The notes beneath the pieces were generated by a model that was not told the DNA's origin, ran no database searches, and saw only the letters and a list, made by a program, of their open reading frames with translations. From Acidobacteriota bacterium (GTDB lineage Bacteria; Acidobacteriota; Terriglobia; Terriglobales; Acidobacteriaceae): 29,359 nucleotides of DNA. The stretch lies in the NCBI GenBank assembly GCA_003225655.1, contig QIAW01000124.1:1-29359 (forward strand), in the 5' to 3' direction. This document shows, in pieces, positions 10,152 through 19,219 of the stretch. A program made the translations under genes and the position numbers. The number at the start of each line of letters is the position of its first letter. The first letter of the stretch is position 1.

Positions 10152-11777
10152 CTACACTGCAGCAGCTTCGCGGTACTCGCGGAATGCCGGAGCTTCCTGA
10201 CGGAAGACAAACTCGGGATATCCAAGCTGGCCCATTTCAGGAATATCCAAGCCTGCCATCTCGGTTTCCGCGGAAACCCGGTGGCCGACAAAGTACTCAA
10301 GCACCATGTTCAGAACGAAGCTGAAGGTGAAAACGAAACCCAGCAAAGTGGAGATTCCTACGAGTTGGGCAGCAAGCTGACTGGCATCTCCGTAGAAGAG
10401 GCCGGTCACCGAACCGGTGACACCGTTCCAGCTTCCTCCGTAGTTGCTGGTGCCATCGGCAAAGAGACCGACCGATAACACACCCCACAGGCCGTTGGCC
10501 CCGTGCACAGAAATAGCGCCGACGGGATCATCTATCTTCAAGACGTTTTCCAAAAAGGCCACGCTGAGGCAAACCAGCACGCCGGCGATGACCAGACCGG
10601 CTAGCAGTCCGTTGCCGCTCATGGAAGCGTCCGGCTTACCCTTCAGAGCCCACATGTAGAGGATCGCGCCGAAAGTACCAGTGCAACCGGCCAGCATGGT
10701 GTTGACTGCAATGGAGCCAATACGCAGGGCGCCGTTTCCGGAGGCTCCCAGAGTGCTGCCGGGATTGAATCCAAACCAGCCGAAGGCCAGGATGAAGCAG
10801 CCGATCAACACGGCGGAAATATCGTGCCCAATAATCGGATTGCTCGAGCCGTCGCGATTGAACTTGCCGATGCGCGGACCGATGATCAGACACACCGCCA
10901 AGGCGGTAATCCCGCCGACTGCGTGTACTACGCCCGAGCCGGCAAAATCACAATATCCTTTACCTAGACCCAGATTGGTTCCCAGTTGCGAGAGCCAGCC
11001 ACCGCCCCAGGCCCAGTTGCCGAATAGCGGGTAGGTAAATGCGCCCATCAGTACGGAAGAAACAGCGAAGGTCAGGAATTTCCAGCGCTCGGCGCAGGCG
11101 CCGGTAACGATGGTGAGGGCCGTATCCATAAACACCATCTGGAAGAGGAACAGCACCATCACAGCGACATCATAGCTGTGTCCTGCCAGGAACATTCCAC
11201 TCTGGCCGAAGAGGCCCCAAGTTTTGTCGAACAAACTAAATGTATGTTCCGGGGTCAGGGAAGCAGTGCCGCCTAGATTGGCAATCCCAGATGACCCGCC
11301 CATTTGAATAGCGAAGCCGATCAGCCAGTAGGCAAGCAGACCGCAGCCGTACACGAAGAAGTTCATCATGTAGGTGTGATTTGCGTTCTTCACCCGGCAC
11401 AGGCCCGCTTCCACCATGGCAAAGCCGGCCTGCATGAACATGACCAGAAAGCCGGTAATGAGCGTCCAAACAAAGTTGATGGCAACCTTGTTTTGCCCTA
11501 CCTGGTTGGCAACATCGGGAAGGGTAACGCCGGCTTTGGAATCCGCCGGCGGGACATCGTTGATGGTGCCGGTTATCGTGCCACCAGGGTCGCCCTTGGC
11601 CAAATCTGCGGCAGCGGGCGCTTTGGAGGCAGCATCCTTGAGTTCAGCCGCCGAGGCTGAAACCGCCGGCGCCGGGGCCGCGGCCGCAGGAGCCGGCGCT
11701 GCCGCTGTCTGCGCCATGGCCCCCATGGTCAAGCCGACCATAAGAATTAAAAGACTTAGACATCGAATTGATTTCAT
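10152..11777 (-). CDS. amt: Ammonium transporter Amt (copy 1, 541 aa) with signal peptide and Ala/Pro-rich N-terminal extension; apparent ~19-aa internal deletion
   Basis: FMQAGFAMVEAG, DFAGSGVVH, GWFGFNPGS, DDPVGAISVH (twin His kept), C-terminal GLDIPEMG. GGAGCAGAGG RBS before ATG 11777. Confidence 0.95.
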   Translation of the reverse strand: MKSIRCLSLLILMVGLTMGAMAQTAAAPAPAAAAPAPAVSASAAELKDAASKAPAAADLAKGDPGGTITGTINDVPPADSKAGVTLPDVANQVGQNKVAINFVWTLITGFLVMFMQAGFAMVEAGLCRVKNANHTYMMNFFVYGCGLLAYWLIGFAIQMGGSSGIANLGGTASLTPEHTFSLFDKTWGLFGQSGMFLAGHSYDVAVMVLFLFQMVFMDTALTIVTGACAERWKFLTFAVSSVLMGAFTYPLFGNWAWGGGWLSQLGTNLGLGKGYCDFAGSGVVHAVGGITALAVCLIIGPRIGKFNRDGSSNPIIGHDISAVLIGCFILAFGWFGFNPGSTLGASGNGALRIGSIAVNTMLAGCTGTFGAILYMWALKGKPDASMSGNGLLAGLVIAGVLVCLSVAFLENVLKIDDPVGAISVHGANGLWGVLSVGLFADGTSNYGGSWNGVTGSVTGLFYGDASQLAAQLVGISTLLGFVFTFSFVLNMVLEYFVGHRVSAETEMAGLDIPEMGQLGYPEFVFRQEAPAFREYREAAAV

Positions 11778-11832
11778 TTCCTCTGCTCCATAGTGTGAAT
11801 TTTGGTTGCGCTGAGCTGTTGCGACTGGCGCA

Positions 11833-12222
11833 TCATGCCTTCCATATAGCGTTCTTGTTAAAAGCCGCGGGTAGCACGTAGAGCATGCCAAGCAGGCTCA
11901 CTGCGATGCCCGCCAGGGCCGCAATAATGCGTCCGCTGGTGCTGGTGGTGAGGTGCATGCCGAAGAGAGTCAACACCCAGCCCAGGCAGGCGAGCAAGGC
12001 GCCAAGCGCTTTCATTCCGCCTGCTCCCGCTTTTTGCGCCGTTGTTCCTTCGGCGGGCTTGATCTTCAAGAACCCAAACAGGCTCGCCAGAAAAACCACG
12101 ACTCCCACCAGCGCGACCACCTTGCCCATGCCGGTAGCAAGATACGCGATGCCGGCACATGCGATTGTCAGTCCCGCCAGAAATAGAGTGAAAAAACTTC
12201 CTTGCGACTTACTTGCCGCCAT
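11833..12222 (-). CDS. Hypothetical four-TM membrane protein (129 aa)
   Basis: Strong RBS GGAGGAGG, four hydrophobic segments, lies directly upstream of amt1. Confidence 0.8.
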   Translation of the reverse strand: MAASKSQGSFFTLFLAGLTIACAGIAYLATGMGKVVALVGVVVFLASLFGFLKIKPAEGTTAQKAGAGGMKALGALLACLGWVLTLFGMHLTTSTSGRIIAALAGIAVSLLGMLYVLPAAFNKNAIWKA

Positions 12223-12266
12223 AAAACCTCCTCCTTGGCCCGTATGGGCCGTTTCCTAAATTAAAT

Positions 12267-12731
12267 TTAAATTGCGTACTCTTCTGGTTTCAGTACTTCC
12301 AGTACTCCGTTACCCATCCAGAAGTGAAGCCCGCACAATCTGGCTTGCATCGCTAGGGAACGAACACTCCACGAAACCTGATCTTCGCGGTTGACGGTGC
12401 CGGCAATAATCAGTTCGGGAGGCTCGCGCACCGGCTGGCGGTAGACGCGGAATATCGCGTTATCAACCCCGGGCAATGCGCAGAACAGAAGCTCACGTAC
12501 TGCCATTGCGTCTTTTAACGCCTGAAGCGAAGCGTTGTGCTCGCCAATCGCCGGCGGCAAATCCTTGTCCCACTCATCGGCAGGACGCGCCATCCAATCG
12601 CACTCCACCTGGTTCTCTCGCAATTGCAGCCGCAACAGGCGCAGCGGAGCGCGCGACAGCTCCCCAAACCGCATCCCTATCCGCAACCCGCGAACGAAGT
12701 AACCGAGTTCCCACAAGCGCTTCATCTTCAT
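12267..12731 (-). CDS. Hypothetical soluble protein (154 aa)
   Basis: Fills the gap in the operon, has an ATGA overlap with the upstream gene and a plausible alpha/beta composition; no family recognised. Confidence 0.7.
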   Translation of the reverse strand: MKMKRLWELGYFVRGLRIGMRFGELSRAPLRLLRLQLRENQVECDWMARPADEWDKDLPPAIGEHNASLQALKDAMAVRELLFCALPGVDNAIFRVYRQPVREPPELIIAGTVNREDQVSWSVRSLAMQARLCGLHFWMGNGVLEVLKPEEYAI

Positions 12732-13036
12732 CGGCTATGAACGCCTCCATCAACTTCACGCCGGGCGGGTAGCGCAAGAAACACCAGAAATTGCAATAAG
12801 ATCGTGACTTCCAAAATCAAAGGCTGCGTTGATTGCAGCCGCAATACCAGCACCAGCGCGACCATGGCGAACCACTGCCAGCGCGAGCGGCGCAACCTTT
12901 CCCAGCGGCCTGGAAGGTGGAAGATGTTGCTCAAAGTTATCTTCTGATCGGGAGGGAAGGGTCCATGCGCAGTAATGCAACTGACCGCGAAAAATCCCGC
13001 GAGTAACAACTCCACTAAAATCATCATCTGCTGCAT
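12728..13036 (-). CDS. Hypothetical membrane protein (about 102 aa, 2-3 TM)
   Basis: CAGGAG RBS before ATG 13036; hydrophobic segments flank WERLRRSRWQW; ATGA overlap with the next gene. Confidence 0.7.
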   Translation of the reverse strand: MQQMMILVELLLAGFFAVSCITAHGPFPPDQKITLSNIFHLPGRWERLRRSRWQWFAMVALVLVLRLQSTQPLILEVTILLQFLVFLALPARREVDGGVHSR

Positions 13037-13110
13037 CCCCGACTCCTGAAACTTGCTGGTCAATCAATTGAAATAGTGCGTATACACTTCCACGCCTTCG
13101 GGCTTTAGCT

Positions 13111-13267
13111 GGCGGAAGACAAAAACACCCCCGCTTTCTGCCGCACAGGACCAATTCCTTGGCTCGTCTTCGAGCGCCTTGTAGTTATGAGTTGGGCACA
13201 GCGTCGTGCCCTAAGAGACCTCTCTGAGGTGGAAGAGAGGCAAGCTGCGATCCTCTAAAATGTTGGT
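13111..13267 (-). promoter_or_regulatory. Structured 5' leader B: three hairpins, ANTAR-target-like
   Basis: P0 stem CCTCTCT/AGAGAGG (13219-13240), P1 GGGCAC-GACGCT-GTGCCC (13194-13211), P2 GCTC-GAAGAC-GAGC (13162-13175), U5 tract (13121-13125). Same spacing as leader A. Confidence 0.7.
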
Positions 13268-13286: not shown

Positions 13287-13340
13287 GACTCAAAAAGTCC
13301 AATTGAAATTTTTGATAGCGGGAATTAGATATCCTAATCA
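13287..13340 (-). promoter_or_regulatory. Conserved promoter/operator block, copy B
   Basis: 51/54 identical to 16050-16103; contains the 26-bp palindrome TCAAAAA-N12-TTTTTGA and ATTAG-N5-CTAAT. Confidence 0.8.
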
Positions 13341-13736: not shown

Positions 13737-14075
13737 TCAAAGCGCGGAAACTCCCCGCTCCTGGCTGCGGATGCGAATCGCCTCATCCACTTTGTAGAGG
13801 AAGATCTTCCCGTCGCCGATCTTGCCGGTCGAGGCGGTTTTGATGATAGTGTCAACGGCCTCGTTCACAAGCTTATCGTCTAGCACCAGTTCGACTTTGA
13901 TCTTCGGCAGGAGATCAACCTTGTATTCATTGCCGCGATAAGCTTCGGTGTGTCCCTTTTGCCGTCCGTGGCCGCGGACCTCTGACACTGTCATTCCCTC
14001 AACACCGAGCGCGATCAGGGCTTCTTTGACCATCTCAAACTTGGTCGGTTGAATAATGGCTTCAAGTTTTGTCAT
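13737..14075 (-). CDS. glnK: P-II nitrogen regulatory protein (112 aa)
   Basis: EAIIQP, GMTVSEVRGHGRQKG, T-loop YRGNEY (Tyr51 equivalent), TGKIGDGKIF, AIRIR. GGAG RBS; adjacent to amt, hence glnK rather than glnB. Confidence 0.95.
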   Translation of the reverse strand: MTKLEAIIQPTKFEMVKEALIALGVEGMTVSEVRGHGRQKGHTEAYRGNEYKVDLLPKIKVELVLDDKLVNEAVDTIIKTASTGKIGDGKIFLYKVDEAIRIRSQERGVSAL

Positions 14076-14143: not shown

Positions 14144-15754
14144 TTACGTGGTTATCTTTTCGGTGTGCGAGGTGGTCTTGGTAGCCATCGCGTGTTGTTC
14201 TGCCATGCCTTTCGGCATAGCCAGTGACGAGATGACGTATTCCGGATAAGCCGAGATACCATGCTCGTGCAGATCGAGGCCATACAATTCGCCTTCTTCC
14301 GATACCCGCAGCGTGCCGGTTGCATTAACGGCATACATGACCGCCATGGCGACGGCGAAGGTGGCAAGCGTGATGACTGCGCTGCCAATGGCCTGAGCTG
14401 CGAGCACTTGCGTACCACCGCCATAGAAGAGACCTTTCAACGGGGCGGAGTTGTCGGGTGAAACCGGTCCGGTTGCACCATACTTGCCGCAGGCAAACAG
14501 CCCGAGTGATAACGTTCCCCAGATGCCGCAGAAACCATGAACGGGAACGGCGCCGATGGGATCATCAATGCGCAGCCATTCCAGCAATTCAACCCCAAGA
14601 ACCACGAGAACACCGGCAATGCCACCCAGGAGAATGGCGCCCGTGGGGCTGACCCAGTAGCAGGGACAGGTGATGGCAACTAGTCCAGCGAGGAAGCCGT
14701 TTGTAGTAAAGCCAGCGTCCCATTTTTTGGATGACATGTAAGCCCAGAACATGGCGGTCAATCCGGCCGCGCATGCTGCCAGAGTGGTGTTGGCCGCGAC
14801 CCGGCCGATGCCTTCAAAATCCATTGCCGAGAGTGTGCTGCCAGGGTTGAAGCCATACCAGCCGAACCAAAGAATCAGACCGCCGCTGACAGCGATGGTC
14901 AGATCGTGCGGCAGCATAGGAGCGCCACCGTCGCGTTTGAATTTGCGGCCCAGGCGCGGACCAAGAACGATGGAGCCCGCCAGTGCAATGAAACCACCAA
15001 TGGTGTGCACGACCGTGGACCCCGCAAAATCATGGAAGCCCATTCCCAAAGAAGGGAAGAAGTGACCGTCGCTGCCCATCAAGGCAAGCCAGCCATCCGG
15101 CCCCCACGCCCAGTGGCCGATAATTGGATAAATAAAACCGGAAACGGCGAGACTGTAAAGCAGGTCGCCGACGAAGCCGGTGCGTCCGATCATCGCGCCT
15201 GAGGTGATGGTTGAGCAGGTGTCGGCAAAGGCAAACTGGAATATCCAGACCGCAAGAAATGCGACGCCTGTAGTCTCATAGGTAGCCGGCGCGTCTTTGA
15301 GGAAGAACCAGTGATGACCGATGAAGCCGTTGCCGTGGCTGAACATGAAAGCGAAGCCGATGGCATAGAAGAGAATGCCGCAAAGACATGTATCGACGAC
15401 GCATTCCATGAGGACGTTTACGGTCTCACGCGAACGGCAAAAGCCGGCCTCAAGCATGGTGAATCCGACCTGCATGCCGAAGACCAGAAAAGCGGCGATC
15501 AGAGTCCAGGCAGTGTTGACCGGATTGACGACGTCGGCAGCTTTGACCTCCGGGCCGCTATCGGCGTAAACGTGAGCAAAAAAGAGGCCCGAAACGGCCG
15601 CCATGATCAGCAGCACCAAGGCCAGTCCCAGGGCCTTGCCGGCAAAGACGGTTTTCGCATACCGGCGCCACTCCGGATCACGCATGCGGACGGACAAGCG
15701 CGAAAACTTTTGCGATAGAGACAATTTCTTCCCTTCGTGCACAATTGCAGACAT
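14144..15754 (-). CDS. amt: Ammonium transporter Amt (copy 2, 536 aa)
   Basis: GMQVGFTMLEAG, DFAGSTVVH, GWYGFNPGS, GLVAITCP, DDPIGAVPVH, GLDLHEHG; AAGGAG RBS. Confidence 0.96.
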   Translation of the reverse strand: MSAIVHEGKKLSLSQKFSRLSVRMRDPEWRRYAKTVFAGKALGLALVLLIMAAVSGLFFAHVYADSGPEVKAADVVNPVNTAWTLIAAFLVFGMQVGFTMLEAGFCRSRETVNVLMECVVDTCLCGILFYAIGFAFMFSHGNGFIGHHWFFLKDAPATYETTGVAFLAVWIFQFAFADTCSTITSGAMIGRTGFVGDLLYSLAVSGFIYPIIGHWAWGPDGWLALMGSDGHFFPSLGMGFHDFAGSTVVHTIGGFIALAGSIVLGPRLGRKFKRDGGAPMLPHDLTIAVSGGLILWFGWYGFNPGSTLSAMDFEGIGRVAANTTLAACAAGLTAMFWAYMSSKKWDAGFTTNGFLAGLVAITCPCYWVSPTGAILLGGIAGVLVVLGVELLEWLRIDDPIGAVPVHGFCGIWGTLSLGLFACGKYGATGPVSPDNSAPLKGLFYGGGTQVLAAQAIGSAVITLATFAVAMAVMYAVNATGTLRVSEEGELYGLDLHEHGISAYPEYVISSLAMPKGMAEQHAMATKTTSHTEKITT

Positions 15755-15877
15755 TCATTAACTCCTTCATGAATAGAAGATTTTTAATCGGGTTCAGCAG
15801 TGGCTCTTTACACCAAAAGCGGAACAACAAAACTCAGCACGGCAGCGTAGAAAGCCCGGCTCAAGCCAACGGCTAGA

Positions 15878-16030
15878 GACACAAAAACGCAACGGTTCGC
15901 TACCGTACAGGGACTAACTTGCCGGCTCGCCTTTGAGCCTGATATTTCTATGATTTCGGCACCGCGTCGTGCCCGAGAAGCGCCTCTGCTGGAGGAGAGG
16001 CCAGACTGCAGGGTTTCTGCAACTGTTGGT
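15878..16030 (-). promoter_or_regulatory. Structured 5' leader A: three hairpins, ANTAR-target-like
   Basis: P0 stem GCCTCT/AGAGGC (15982-16001), P1 GGCAC-GACGCG-GTGCC (15958-15973), P2 GGCTC-AAAGGC-GAGCC (15924-15939, canonical A1/G4 hexaloop), U5 tract (15883-15887). Confidence 0.75.
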
Positions 16031-16049
16031 CAACTATTCTCTATACATC

Positions 16050-16103
16050 GACTCAAAAAGTCCAATTGAAATTTTTGATAGAGGGAATTAGATCCCCTAA
16101 TCA
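16050..16103 (-). promoter_or_regulatory. Conserved promoter/operator block, copy A
   Basis: The first 32 bp are identical to 13287-13318; 51/54 identity overall. Confidence 0.8.
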
Positions 16104-16181
16104 AAATTCAAAACGAACAACAAAACCGGACCACTGCAAACGAAATGCAGCAGCCCGGTGCCTCGTGTACTGGTACAACTG

Positions 16182-16898
16182 TTAAGAACCTTGTTTTACG
16201 GCATCGCTCAACACAATGGCATCGGCAATTTCTTTCATGGATTTACGCCGCTGCTGGCTCTGGCGTTGCAGAATCTTGTAGGCCTCTGGCTCAGCGATCC
16301 TCAGATCCCGCTGCAGAATTGCCTTGGCGCGTTCTACGAGCTTGCGGGTTTCCAGTTGCTCGGAGAGCTGCGAGTTTTCGCTCTCCAGCCGTGCCATCTC
16401 GATCTCGGCGCCCACCAGGAAGCCGATGGTCGAAACCAGGCGGATTTCACGTTGACTGTAGGGATGGGGCGCGCGGTTCTGCAGGTTAATCACGCCTACC
16501 AGCCGCCCGCGGCTGAGCACAGGAACGGAGAGGAATGCCGCAAAGCGGTCTTCCGGCAGTTCATTAAAAAATTGAAAACGTGAATCAGCGGAGGCATTTT
16601 CTGGCACGGCGACCGGCTGCCGATGTTCTGCGACCCAGCCGGTAATGCCTTGTCCCAGCTTCAACTTCAATCGGTCCACAGTTTCGGGATGTGGATTCTT
16701 GGAGGCGCGCAGAACAAGCTCGTCACTCTCCAGCACATAGATGAAGCATGAATCGCACTTCACCACGGAGGTCACAAATTCGACCACATCGGCCAGCACA
16801 TCGTGCAACGGCTCGGCCGCCGTCCGGTTGGCCATGCGCTGCAGGAAGGCGGTCTCAGAATCCTCATTCAACATATAGGTTGACATACCATTCGACAT
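16182..16898 (-). CDS. GAF plus ANTAR domain RNA-binding antiterminator
   Basis: GAF: LGQGITGWVAEHRQP, EDRFAAFLSVPV, LVGVINLQN. Coiled coil, then ANTAR: QLETRKLVERAKAILQRDLRIAEPEAYKILQRQSQQRRKSMKEIADAIV. No receiver domain. Confidence 0.92.
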   Translation of the reverse strand: MSNGMSTYMLNEDSETAFLQRMANRTAAEPLHDVLADVVEFVTSVVKCDSCFIYVLESDELVLRASKNPHPETVDRLKLKLGQGITGWVAEHRQPVAVPENASADSRFQFFNELPEDRFAAFLSVPVLSRGRLVGVINLQNRAPHPYSQREIRLVSTIGFLVGAEIEMARLESENSQLSEQLETRKLVERAKAILQRDLRIAEPEAYKILQRQSQQRRKSMKEIADAIVLSDAVKQGS

Positions 16899-16991: not shown

Positions 16992-17615
16992 TTATCGGTG
17001 AGAGCGAGGATTCAACTTTTCTGACATTCTTACCAGCTCCGGCAGGGAATCAGCCTGCATTTTCTGCATTACATGGCTGCGATGGAATTTGACCGTGACT
17101 TCACTGAGTCCGAGTTGCGCGGCGATCTGCTTATTCAGCAGCCCTTGAACCACCAGGTCCATGATCTCGCGCTCTCGTGGTGTGAGGCTGTCAAAGCGGG
17201 AGCGTAGAGAGAAAATAGCGGCCTGTTGGTCACGCCGTGCGAGGTCGCGTTCAAGCGCCTGATGGATGGCGGCGAGAAGTTCGTCTTTTTGAAATGGCTT
17301 GGTCAGGAATTCTATTGCGCCCGCTTTCATCGCCCGGCGAGTCATAGGTATGTCGCCATGGGCGGTAATGAAGATAATGGGAATGGGTATGCCGCAGCTT
17401 TCGAGCTGGTTTTGGAAATCCAGGCCGCTGACGCCGGGGAGTTTTACGTCGAGCACAAGACAACTGGGAACCTCTGGCCGCGTGGCTTCCATGAATTCTT
17501 CCGTCGAGGCGAACACCTCGGCGTGGTGCCCCGCCGATTCCAGAAGATTGCTGACGGCGTCGCGAACAGAGACGTCATCATCAACGACGTAAATTACCGG
17601 GCGTGGGTTAGCCAT
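16992..17615 (-). CDS. Response regulator, FixJ/NodW-type (receiver plus LuxR HTH, 207 aa)
   Basis: IYVVDDD, CLVLDVKLPG (phospho-Asp), FLTKPF, LTPREREIM...GLLNKQIAAQLGLSEVTVKFHR. ATG 17615 overlaps the kinase stop (ATGGCTAA). Confidence 0.93.
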   Translation of the reverse strand: MANPRPVIYVVDDDVSVRDAVSNLLESAGHHAEVFASTEEFMEATRPEVPSCLVLDVKLPGVSGLDFQNQLESCGIPIPIIFITAHGDIPMTRRAMKAGAIEFLTKPFQKDELLAAIHQALERDLARRDQQAAIFSLRSRFDSLTPREREIMDLVVQGLLNKQIAAQLGLSEVTVKFHRSHVMQKMQADSLPELVRMSEKLNPRSHR

Positions 17616-19106
17616 TGGAATCCTGCGAGCGTATGGGAATGGTGAACTGGAAAATGGCGCCGCCCGAAGGACGTGGCGTTGCCCACAACCGCCCCTGGTG
17701 CGATTCGACGATGGAACGGCTGATTGATAACCCCATGCCGATACCCTGGGGTTTTGTGGTGAAGAACGGCTCGAAGATTTTTTCCGTGATTGCAGGGCTG
17801 AATCCCACGCCACCATCTTCAACTCGAACCACTATTTGAGTAGAGTTTTCCGTGCCAGAGCTGATGAGCAGCTCCTTGGTACGGCTGGCGGTCCCTGCCA
17901 TGGCATCCATGCCATTCATCATGAGGTTAAGCACAACCTGTTGCAACTGGACCCTGTCTCCCTTGACCTCCGGAAGACCAGAAGCCAGGGCTGTCCGAAT
18001 GGTGATGCGACGCCCTCCTGGGCAGGAGCTTCTTTTTTGAAGAGAGCGCGAATTCGGCCAAGCACGGCGCCGGCCCTGGTTCCATCCTGGATAATTCTCT
18101 CAGTGGTCTGCAGCGCCTTGCTTACATTGGGTGGATTCGCCGCGAGCCAGCCGAGACACGCATGGCCATGCGCAACCACAGCAGCCAGCGGTTGATTGAT
18201 CTCGTGAGCGATGGAAGCAGCCAGCTCACCCATGCTCAAAACCCGGGAAAGATAAGCAAGCTCAGTCTGGGTTCTCATCAAGGCGTCTTCGGTCTTATGT
18301 AACTCTTCGATGTCGGTGTTGGTTCCGTACCAGCGGAGTGTCTTTTGCTGCTGATCTTGTAGCGGTACACCGCGGGTGAAAAACCAACGATATTGCCCGT
18401 CAGCGCCGCGCACACGCCATTCGCCTTCCAAGGGCTTTGCTTGAGACAGCGCGTCTCGCCAAAGCCGCCGGAAGCCTTCCCGGTCCTCGGGATGAATGGT
18501 TTCAACAAAGGCCTCGCCCTTCATCTCATCCACGGTCCGGCCAACATAGTTGAGAAGACGCTGATTGCAATAATCAATCGAGCCGTCGGCCGTGCCGCTC
18601 CAGATCTGCTGCGGAATGACTTCGGTCAAAAGATGGAGTTGGTGCTCCCGCCTGCGCAACTCGGTATTGGATTTCTCGAGCTCGGCTGTGCGCTCGGCAA
18701 CCCGGATCTCCAGTTGGTCGCGGGCTTCCATGAGCGCCTCCTCACTCTGCTTCTTCGACGAACTTACCCAGCTTGCTACCAGTGCGCAAATGACAAATGC
18801 GGCGAAATATGTCTCTGCGGTCGCGTTGATGGCGAAGGAATACAGCGGAGGCACAAAGAAATAATCAACAGCGAGGGTCGAAATCAGCACCGCGAAGAGT
18901 CCCGCGCCCATGCCGCCAAACCACGCGCTCGCCATCACGGCGCCAAAAAACAGGAATAGAAATGGATAAGGAAAGAGGTGCTGGACCAGCAGCGTCAGCA
19001 CCAGCGACAAAGCCACAAAGCACAGTGCCGCTCCGTAGCGCTGCAAGGCAGGTTTGGCCGGCCTTCTGGGTGATGCACTGGTTTGGGGGAGGGCCGTTAA
19101 TACCAA
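17608..19106 (-). pseudogene. Membrane PAS sensor histidine kinase, split by an apparent deletion with frameshift near 18012-18015
   Basis: First frame: four-TM input region, PAS, H-box ELAASIAHEINQPL, ending RIRALFKKEAPAQE. The -1 frame continues RRITIRTALASGLPEVKGDRVQLQQVVLNLMMNG to the G-boxes EDGGVG and GIGMGLSIS. TTG 19106 start inferred. Confidence 0.85.
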
Positions 19107-19136
19107 GTCCTTCAAAATGCGCCTCTTAAGCGCTGG

Positions 19137-19145
19137 ATTATAGCA
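19137..19145 (-). promoter_or_regulatory. Extended -10 promoter element for the kinase/regulator operon
   Basis: TGCTATAAT is an exact TGnTATAAT, about 30 nt upstream of the inferred TTG start. Confidence 0.6.
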
Positions 19146-19219
19146 AAGACAGAAATCTGACACGCGGCCTGGAGGCGCGCAGCGATATATCTTCAACGAG
19201 GCATTGTGGCGGAATGGGT

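Follow-up and report, generated by a model that had tools for sequence, protein, structure and literature searches.

How the ammonium transporter (amt) genes of Acidobacteriota are controlled is a question raised by a stretch of 29,359 nucleotides (nt) from an Acidobacteriaceae genome (the window: contig QIAW01000124.1 of assembly GCA_003225655.1). Nitrogen control in this major soil phylum is, to our knowledge, almost unstudied. On the minus strand of the window, a gene for a protein with a GAF and an ANTAR domain (P0001) precedes two units with amt genes, and a sequence-only reading of this DNA had proposed that the protein is a metabolite-sensing antiterminator which couples nitrogen status to amt expression. 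The evaluation given here inclines, without leaning far, towards a nitrogen-related riboregulator, in which a dimeric GAF-ANTAR protein would act on hexaloop hairpins at the 5' end of both amt transcripts. The window's genome is a metagenome-assembled genome (MAG), 77% complete and consisting of 692 contigs; the related genomes which were compared with it are kin and not independent samples.

The GAF-ANTAR protein and the hairpins of the amt leaders

Protein and leader elements are located as follows (positions of the window).
16182-16898, minus strand: GAF-ANTAR gene (P0001), 238 amino acids (aa), translation is one open frame
~16401-16808, minus strand: GAF domain of P0001 (Pfam)
16212-16370, minus strand: ANTAR domain of P0001 (Pfam)
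15982-16001, minus strand: leader A, hairpin P1, GCCUCU, 8-nt loop, AGAGGC
15958-15973, minus strand: leader A, hairpin P2, GGCAC-GACGCG-GUGCC
15924-15939, minus strand: leader A, hairpin P3, GGCUC-AAAGGC-GAGCC, with a canonical A1/G4 hexaloop (A at loop position 1, G at position 4)
15879-15903, minus strand: leader A, weak terminator-like hairpin followed by GUUUUUGUGU, ~55-70 nt past P2, overlapping neither P2 nor P3
13219-13240, minus strand: leader B, hairpin P1, CCUCUCU, 8-nt loop, AGAGAGG
13195-13210, minus strand: leader B, hairpin P2, GGCAC-GACGCU-GUGCC
13162-13175, minus strand: leader B, hairpin P3, GCUC-GAAGAC-GAGC

The gene of P0001 is real: its family comprises more than 7,900 homologues, and 518 relatives were found in species-representative genomes, almost exclusively of Acidobacteriota. 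The single frame of 238 aa which had been read from the sequence is there, with all of the peptides quoted from it (GQGITGWVAEHRQPV, ADSRFQFFNELPEDRFAAFLSVPVL and GVINLQ). Its start codon is ambiguous, with three in-frame ATGs within 25 nt (at 16898, 16886 and 16874), and a Shine-Dalgarno (SD) sequence was not evident before any of these. Pfam searches recognized the GAF domain at residues 31-166 (E 1e-18) and the ANTAR domain (PF03861) at residues 177-229 (E 6e-17; 61.7 bits versus a cut-off of 27.3); no receiver domain was found in the protein by Pfam, in agreement with the earlier description of a GAF fused directly to an ANTAR domain. Matches of the ANTAR domain in the PDB were Rv1626, EutV and NasR. 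The AlphaFold model, built with 20 homologues (mean predicted local distance difference test, pLDDT, 85.6), consists of a GAF fold, a single long helix and a three-helix ANTAR bundle. The coiled-coil helix preceding ANTAR is predicted to be unbroken over residues 149-199, with pLDDT values above 90, which would serve dimerization.

According to the rule for ANTAR targets, two hexaloop hairpins with A1 and G4 are located 5-12 nt apart, as in the eut leaders, and the second of these overlaps a terminator (PMC3369931). The structure of EutV with RNA shows a single base-specific contact, to the flipped G4, and a loop plugged by Met172, which is indispensable; a lone G4 hexaloop suffices as minimal site (PMC8934654). 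The leaders of the amt-linked loci correspond to this rule in G4, loop size, pairing of hairpins and linker, but not in A1. P1 is located about 20-80 nt past the -10 hexamer and has, in most loci, a stem of 9 bp and a hexaloop which is usually GACGCC; P2, GGCAC-hexaloop-GUGCC, follows after a linker of 7-10 nt. Of the 15 leaders modelled, 11 (and 10 of the 12 from relatives) had hexaloops in both P1 and P2, at a distance of 7-10 nt, and G occupies position 4 in every P2 and P3 loop as well as in all P1 hexaloops. In the window's genus the loop of P1 has degenerated to 7-11 nt, but P3 (GCUC-hexaloop-GAGC) is present 18-19 nt past P2; therefore, two G4 hexaloops are retained through a different pair of hairpins. 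The P3 loops of this genus are AAAGGC, GAAGAC, AAUGAC and AACGAC, three of the four with A1, including that of leader A; P3 hairpins with non-A1 loops occur also in two more distant relatives (L040, L078).

In the alignment of P1, which is model-based and leans toward the model, five pairs showed double (compensatory) changes, 95% of the cells were paired versus about 50% with slid partners, and none of 500 shuffles reached the observed covariation score. P2 variants with the stem GGACAC/GUGUCC, which contains an extra compensating A-U pair, were found in L040 and L078.

A covariance model of P1 and P2 (R1) matched only the two leaders in the window's genome, and only amt-linked loci among 87 GAF-ANTAR loci (725 kb). 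Among 60 related genomes, three contained matches (two belonging to the window's genus and one to a different genus); all three possess an ortholog of P0001 with 75-86% identity, and the matches are located 105-245 nt downstream of it. The element was absent in 15 genomes with only distant GAF-ANTAR-like matches (at most 69% identity, several of them partial or inside larger proteins), and 150 genomes sampled across the class yielded, with strict filters, no further carrier. R1 gave no matches in 528 kb of DNA from metagenomes, comprising the 80 listed of at least 120 stretches with a P2-like pattern (ATTC-N(2-5)-GGCAC-N3-G-N2-GTGCC); this pattern is too loose and the comparison serves as a specificity control only. 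Regulator and RNA element travel together, and the system is patchy and rare, since R1 was restricted to these three among the related genomes and the class-wide sample added no further carrier. The link to amt which had been proposed is well founded: in a maximum-likelihood tree all 14 amt-linked proteins form one branch (support 97/82), each locus has a conserved leader element, and in related genomes the element co-occurs with the ortholog only.

Within the family, only about 13 of the 80 best loci from genomes have amt adjoining the GAF-ANTAR gene; neighbours in the other loci were hemD, a DedA/VTT protein, inositol-phosphate (inositol-1-phosphate) synthase or a short-chain dehydrogenase (SDR). 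The window's genome contains a second GAF-ANTAR copy (L001, G000:C610:1767-2468) with 64% identity, which groups with "orphan" paralogs; this group (L001 and 66 loci among L006-L085) is larger than the amt-linked clade. Orphan proteins are often mislabelled as "uroporphyrinogen-III synthase" by the Joint Genome Institute (JGI). The sole alignment column which splits the two clades is position 215, with Q in 13 of 14 amt-linked proteins and R in 68 of 68 orphans. Gln215 of P0001 aligns with Met172 of EutV, the plug of the RNA loop, where EutV, NasR and Rv1626 all carry Met. Conserved in P0001 are K186, R190, Y207 and R218, which correspond to K143, K147 (as Arg), Y164 and R175 of EutV; changed contacts are R168 to Q211 (with R212 adjacent), M172 to Q215, N173 to Q216 and R177 to S220. 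This pattern fits a role of residue 215 in tuning loop recognition and paralogs which may differ in their RNA targets. As judged by sequence, it is quite probable that P0001 binds these leaders and regulates amt.

A soil metatranscriptome run (X24) contained a 2.4-kb contig of a relative (less than 95% alike), in which the start of amt is followed by a jump to the P2 region (window 15754-15986). This hints weakly at the presence of a related leader in RNA libraries, DNA carry-over being possible. Related amt-glnK genes appear in metatranscriptome contigs of relatives from RNA libraries; RNA runs containing the DNA of the window itself were not found.

The GAF domain and its possible ligand

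The top NCBIfam model for P0001 was that of PtsP (PRK11061; positions 13-168, E 3.9e-16), and NifA was second (8e-11). A sequence search of the PDB yielded the PtsP GAF structures 3ci6 (E 4.6e-20) and 3trc (E 1.5e-15) together with a Geobacter GAF (3e0y, E 3.5e-20); the next class of GAF domains, Nlh1, followed at 3e-7. The HMMER alignment to PtsP GAFs pairs the same motifs as the earlier alignment by eye, and JGI pipelines independently assign the name "signal transduction protein with GAF and PtsI domain" to numerous members of the family. When the model of P0001 was compared with the PDB by Foldseek, 3ci6 and 3trc were on top (30% and 26% identity; template modelling score by target ~0.8). 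Against the AlphaFold models of Swiss-Prot, NifA, VnfA and phosphodiesterases equalled or outscored PtsP of E. coli (rank 7); the highest identity among the top 30 listed fold matches, 24%, was that of E. coli PtsP, tied with Salmonella PtsP (rank 10). The fold does not single out PtsP, because GAFs of NifA and phosphodiesterases score slightly better in the Swiss-Prot models. By sequence, the GAF of P0001 is of the PtsP type; it was placed in the PtsP/NifA corner of GAF space, since PtsP leads by sequence and NifA and phosphodiesterases score equally by fold. The resemblance to PtsP which had been noticed by eye is upheld by profile and sequence comparisons and by Foldseek against the PDB; the fold alone is not specific to PtsP.

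P0001 as a PtsP proper was rejected. The score versus the full PtsP model was 58 bits (equivalog cut-off 583), the alignment is confined to the GAF, and P0001 does not contain the phosphoenolpyruvate (PEP)-utilising enzyme domain. A full PtsP above the equivalog cut-off was found neither in the window's genome nor in three relatives (four genomes in all).

PtsP responds to glutamine and 2-oxoglutarate through its GAF domain (PMC13104625; PMC4848567, the latter including an L83Q mutant). For the GAF of P0001, glutamine/2-oxoglutarate would be a tentative assignment, with somewhat less than an even chance of being correct; it draws on an identity of only 24-30% to PtsP GAFs. Ligand-bound structures did not turn up in the PDB searches with P0001.

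The strongest PtsP-type GAF in the genus belongs to another protein (L214:540-3263, minus strand, G003:C22), with 118-120 bits to the PtsP model. It is fused to DUF3417/alpha-glucan phosphorylase in a protein of 907 aa, of which a partial copy is present at G000:C34:9-509. This fusion suggests that the same type of sensor may also gate glycogen breakdown.

Output, partners and other explanations

In the proposed mechanism, the GAF-ANTAR dimer would bind G4 hexaloops as the amt leaders emerge, namely P2 and P1 in most relatives and P2 and P3 in the window's genus, and binding would set, and presumably raise, the share of each amt transcript which is completed or translated. Read-through of a downstream stop could be involved; this would be a weak GUUUUUGU site in the window's genus and elsewhere perhaps a Rho-dependent one. 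The GAF would read the balance of glutamine and 2-oxoglutarate in the manner of PtsP and NifA GAFs, such that amt-glnK would be on when nitrogen is short. A neighbouring histidine kinase (HK) and NarL-type response regulator (RR) would probably act at the promoter block, resulting in two layers of control. A more specific version appears doubtful as a whole: a first GAF-ANTAR case with definable ligand and RNA code, in which a PtsP-type GAF would read the ratio of glutamine to 2-oxoglutarate and switch ANTAR directly, residue 215 would have retuned ANTAR to the non-canonical GACGCC hexaloops, no overlapping terminator would be involved, and the protein would be wired to a DUF4118 membrane sensor which may report on the transporter.

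Several results weigh against the riboregulator. P0001 has Gln in place of Met172, which is essential in EutV. Loops of P1 and P2 have mostly G at position 1 (GACGCC-like), the canonical A1 being present only in a few, and the stem of P2 never varies, so that P2 itself receives no covariation support. Folding energy of the whole leaders was no better than that of shuffled sequences; Rfam families were not found in the leaders with gathering or permissive thresholds; and a naive scan of the window for paired A1/G4 hexaloops gave 16 matches versus 16.3 expected, which is chance level. No intrinsic terminator overlapping P2 or P3 was found; a terminator scan past P2 was weak and inconsistent, with a weak hairpin and GUUUUUGU ~55-70 nt past P2 in the window's genus only and nothing convincing in the majority of relatives. 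The first gene of L080 begins about 12-38 nt past P2. The ranking among the Swiss-Prot models and the low identity to PtsP GAFs, both described above, belong here as well.

Whether the output would be antitermination, rather than translational or stability control, is evenly balanced. It need not be the antitermination which the sequence-only reading suggested, because no terminator overlaps the hairpins and the first gene of L080 starts within ~40 nt of P2. The same protein and RNA could affect translation initiation or mRNA stability, as is reported for ANTAR RNAs of actinobacteria, with the pyrimidine-rich 5' arm of P1 (CCUCU) as a possible anti-SD sequence. The lack of a terminator overlapping P2 would agree with this, as would the widely varying gap between P2 and the start codon, ~12-38 nt to 395 nt, and the arms of P1, CCUCUUUUC and GAGAAGAGG, which resemble an anti-SD/SD pair; for mycobacteria, translational repression by ANTAR proteins has been described (bioRxiv 10.1101/660928). 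Nevertheless, this output is rather unlikely, since in most loci the hairpins are 85-400 nt away from the ribosome-binding site, and a T-run past the hairpins is conserved in the window's genus, in both leaders as well as in L003 and L093.

The proteins and promoters which may cooperate with the riboregulator are encoded at the following positions.
17608-19196, minus strand: histidine kinase, DUF4118-PAS-HisKA-HATPase, broken
16992-17615, minus strand: NarL/LuxR-type response regulator, REC and GerE; its start ATG overlaps the HK stop (translationally coupled)
16125-16159, minus strand: intrinsic terminator of the regulator gene, 14-pair stem followed by TTTTGTTGTT
16036-16080, minus strand: promoter A, -35 TTGGAC (16065-16060), 18-nt spacer, -10 GAGAAT (16041-16036)
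14144-15754, minus strand: Amt ammonium transporter, first unit
13737-14075, minus strand: glnK (P-II), 112 aa
13273-13320, minus strand: promoter B, same block, -35 TTGGAC (13302-13297), 18-nt spacer, -10 CAGAAT (13278-13273)
10152-13063, minus strand: second unit, three conserved genes and a second amt (~11776-10152)

The order on the minus strand is HK, RR, GAF-ANTAR, a strong terminator, a leader of 370 nt, amt, glnK, a second leader, three genes and the second amt; amt (15754-14144) and glnK (14075-13737) are located directly downstream, adjacent to the regulator gene as had been stated. The strong terminator closes the regulator gene; therefore, the amt unit has its own promoter. P1 was considered as terminator of the regulator gene and rejected, since the conserved promoter precedes it and the gene already has its strong terminator at 16159-16125. 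HK and RR are immediately upstream of GAF-ANTAR in 12 of the 14 tree loci of the amt clade, and the cassette HK-RR-GAF/ANTAR-leader-amt(-glnK) is present in 12 of 14 tree loci, with 63-86% identity to P0001; glnK is absent from amt2-type loci. The three genes at 11833-13063 (minus strand) encode a membrane protein of 111/102 aa, a soluble protein of 154 aa and a protein of 129 aa with four transmembrane segments; they gave no matches in Pfam, and they recur in varying combinations between leader and amt in many amt-linked loci (L005, L014, L017, L078, L080).

The HK of the window contains a deletion and frameshift of ~60 nt near 18015-18100 and is ~22 codons short when compared with an ortholog of 523 aa in L003; its HATPase_c portion runs on in a different frame (open 18099-17608). 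It is a pseudogene or the result of an assembly error of the MAG. If the break is real, the GAF-ANTAR branch would be the sole intact sensor at the locus.

In two loci (L020:3404-4699 and L049:3410-4670), the DUF4118 membrane domain, a coiled coil, GAF and ANTAR are joined in one open reading frame of ~420-430 aa directly downstream of amt-glnK; these are amt-linked lineages which are not in the tree. The protein P0120 likewise joins DUF4118 to GAF-ANTAR. No separate HK or RR was detected near the L020 and L049 fusions in the 4-kb upstream flank, the only flank examined. By its sequence, the fusion is a link of the Rosetta-stone type between the sensor domain of the kinase and the GAF-ANTAR regulator. 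P0001 has sensor and output in one chain without a receiver, but the designation "one-component", in the sense of self-sufficient, is doubtful, because HK and RR, which the sequence-only reading had overlooked, are conserved upstream and DUF4118 is fused to GAF-ANTAR elsewhere.

With these partners, the GAF could be a protein-interaction or relay module acting on the same RNA target, its input coming from GlnK or from the DUF4118 membrane sensor of the kinase. In Azotobacter, 2-oxoglutarate is a ligand of the GAF domain of NifA, and the GAFs of other NifA proteins are responsive to P-II; GlnK input would be analogous to the action of P-II on some NifA GAFs, or to the sequestration of AmiR and NasT by AmiC and NasS. 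The location of glnK inside the regulated operon, the conserved HK and RR next door, the fusions of DUF4118 in L020, L049 and P0120, and the rank of NifA as second family match and top Swiss-Prot fold match are in favour of such an input. It is unlikely nevertheless, since the GAF retains motifs common to ligand-binding PtsP GAFs, amt2-type loci are devoid of glnK, and P0001 has no receiver which could accept a phosphoryl group.

In all amt-linked loci, a promoter block AAAAGTTTGAATTTGACTT includes TTGACT or TTGGAC as -35 hexamer, followed by a spacer of 17-18 nt and a -10 hexamer similar to nAGAAT; hexamers and spacing are kept in 15 leaders, and the sequence of the spacer is variable. By these features, the leader promoter is sigma70-like and not of the sigma54 type. 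The block around -35, AAAAGTTTGAAT-TTGACTT with a tandem repeat TTTGAA/TTTGAC, is present at 16060-16080 and 13297-13320 (minus strand) and in 13 other loci; it is a candidate site of the NarL-type response regulator. The window's genome contains rpoN and many activators (enhancer-binding proteins) of the NtrC family, none of which scored above the NtrC equivalog cut-off. Control "without NtrBC or sigma54", as had been assumed, would thus apply to the leader promoter and not beyond it.

The palindrome of 16 bp, GGCAC-N6-GTGCC, could also function as DNA, either as an operator bound by the NarL-type RR or some other factor or as a sigma54-like element, the GAF-ANTAR protein having some other RNA as target. 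An invariant stem of P2 would be expected of a protein-binding DNA site, and GGCAC resembles the -24 box of sigma54 promoters, for which rpoN and enhancer-binding proteins are available in the genome. This is improbable, however, since compensatory changes have preserved the base pairs of the neighbouring P1, which speaks for RNA, the P2 variants of L040 and L078 insert a compensating A-U pair, and the element tracks the ANTAR ortholog; moreover, the spacing from GG to GC is one base too long for sigma54, and a sigma70-type promoter is located ~65-95 nt upstream of P2. Spacing, palindromic variants and the covariation of P1 led to the rejection of a sigma54 promoter at P2.

The first strand of the GAF opens with a motif Cys48-Asp-Ser/Ala-Cys51 (window 16746-16757), which might bind a metal or respond to redox state. 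Sensing of redox state or metals through it, instead of nitrogen metabolites, is hardly to be expected, although C48, D49 and C51 are invariant in 82 of 82 members examined and PtsP GAFs have only the second cysteine, since the motif is as invariant in orphan paralogs with unrelated neighbourhoods and the genomic context is ammonium uptake only.

Comparison with known systems

GAF-ANTAR proteins are among the commonest ANTAR architectures; a characterized member was not found in the ANTAR literature consulted (PMC3369931, PMC7496416, PMC12591593), though the architecture is listed there. ANTAR motifs before genes of P-II proteins and ammonium transporters were predicted in 2012 (PMC3369931). 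In Geobacter, GnfR, a REC-ANTAR protein, is needed for read-through of the terminator in the nifH leader, and the leaders of glnK and amtB contain similar terminator signals (PMC2995071). To speak of an undescribed system, as the sequence-only reading did, is too strong, since the literature already contains the architecture of GAF-ANTAR proteins as well as ANTAR motifs preceding P-II and amt genes (PMC3369931, PMC2995071, PMC12591593). If the riboregulator should be confirmed, uptake of ammonium would be an example of riboregulation gated by metabolites, downstream of a promoter of the sigma70 type and with neither NtrC nor sigma54 acting there, and the recognition rule for ANTAR proteins would be wider than A1/G4 loops, which should improve searches for ANTAR regulons. 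The locus is a compact and testable case, with a candidate pair of ligands, an RNA element present twice in the same genome and one candidate residue for the RNA specificity of the paralogs.

The GnfK/GnfR system of Geobacter sulfurreducens (PMC2995071) is similar in that leaders of nitrogen genes are the targets of an ANTAR protein, glnK and amtB share the terminator-like leader signals of nifH, their operon too starts with a hypothetical gene, and control is layered with a second two-component system. GnfR, however, is a phosphorylated receiver-ANTAR protein and operates with sigma54 promoters and clear terminators, whereas P0001 has a GAF, a sigma70-like promoter and no overlapping terminator. 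NasR of Klebsiella oxytoca, a NIT-ANTAR protein (PMC7496416, PMC12591593), is likewise a sensor and ANTAR in one polypeptide, encoded directly upstream of a nitrogen operon and with two hexaloop hairpins as targets; it differs by its NIT domain, which binds nitrate or nitrite, by A1/G4 loops and a defined terminator, and by having kept the equivalent of Met172. With EutV and the eut leaders of Enterococcus faecalis (PMC3369931, PMC8934654), the system shares ANTAR and a coiled coil, dual hexaloop hairpins, G4 and most contact residues; EutV has receiver input, a P2 which overlaps the terminator, A1 loops and Met172, which is Gln in P0001.

With respect to the sensor, the PtsP GAF (3ci6, 3trc) belongs to the closest GAF subfamily by sequence and has the motifs DxC, EG-x-x-G-x-V, E-E-x-F/Y-x-x-F-L-x-x-P and GV-x-x-x-Q in common with P0001; the identity is 24-30%, and P0001 has no PEP-utilising domain and an extra invariant cysteine (CxxC). 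The GAF of NifA, the second-best family model and top fold match in Swiss-Prot, shows 16-20% identity, and the output of NifA is an AAA+ activator of sigma54. The locus described here would be set apart from these known systems by its single PtsP-type GAF, non-canonical loops, a Gln as plug, hairpins without an overlapping terminator, and a conserved two-component partner.

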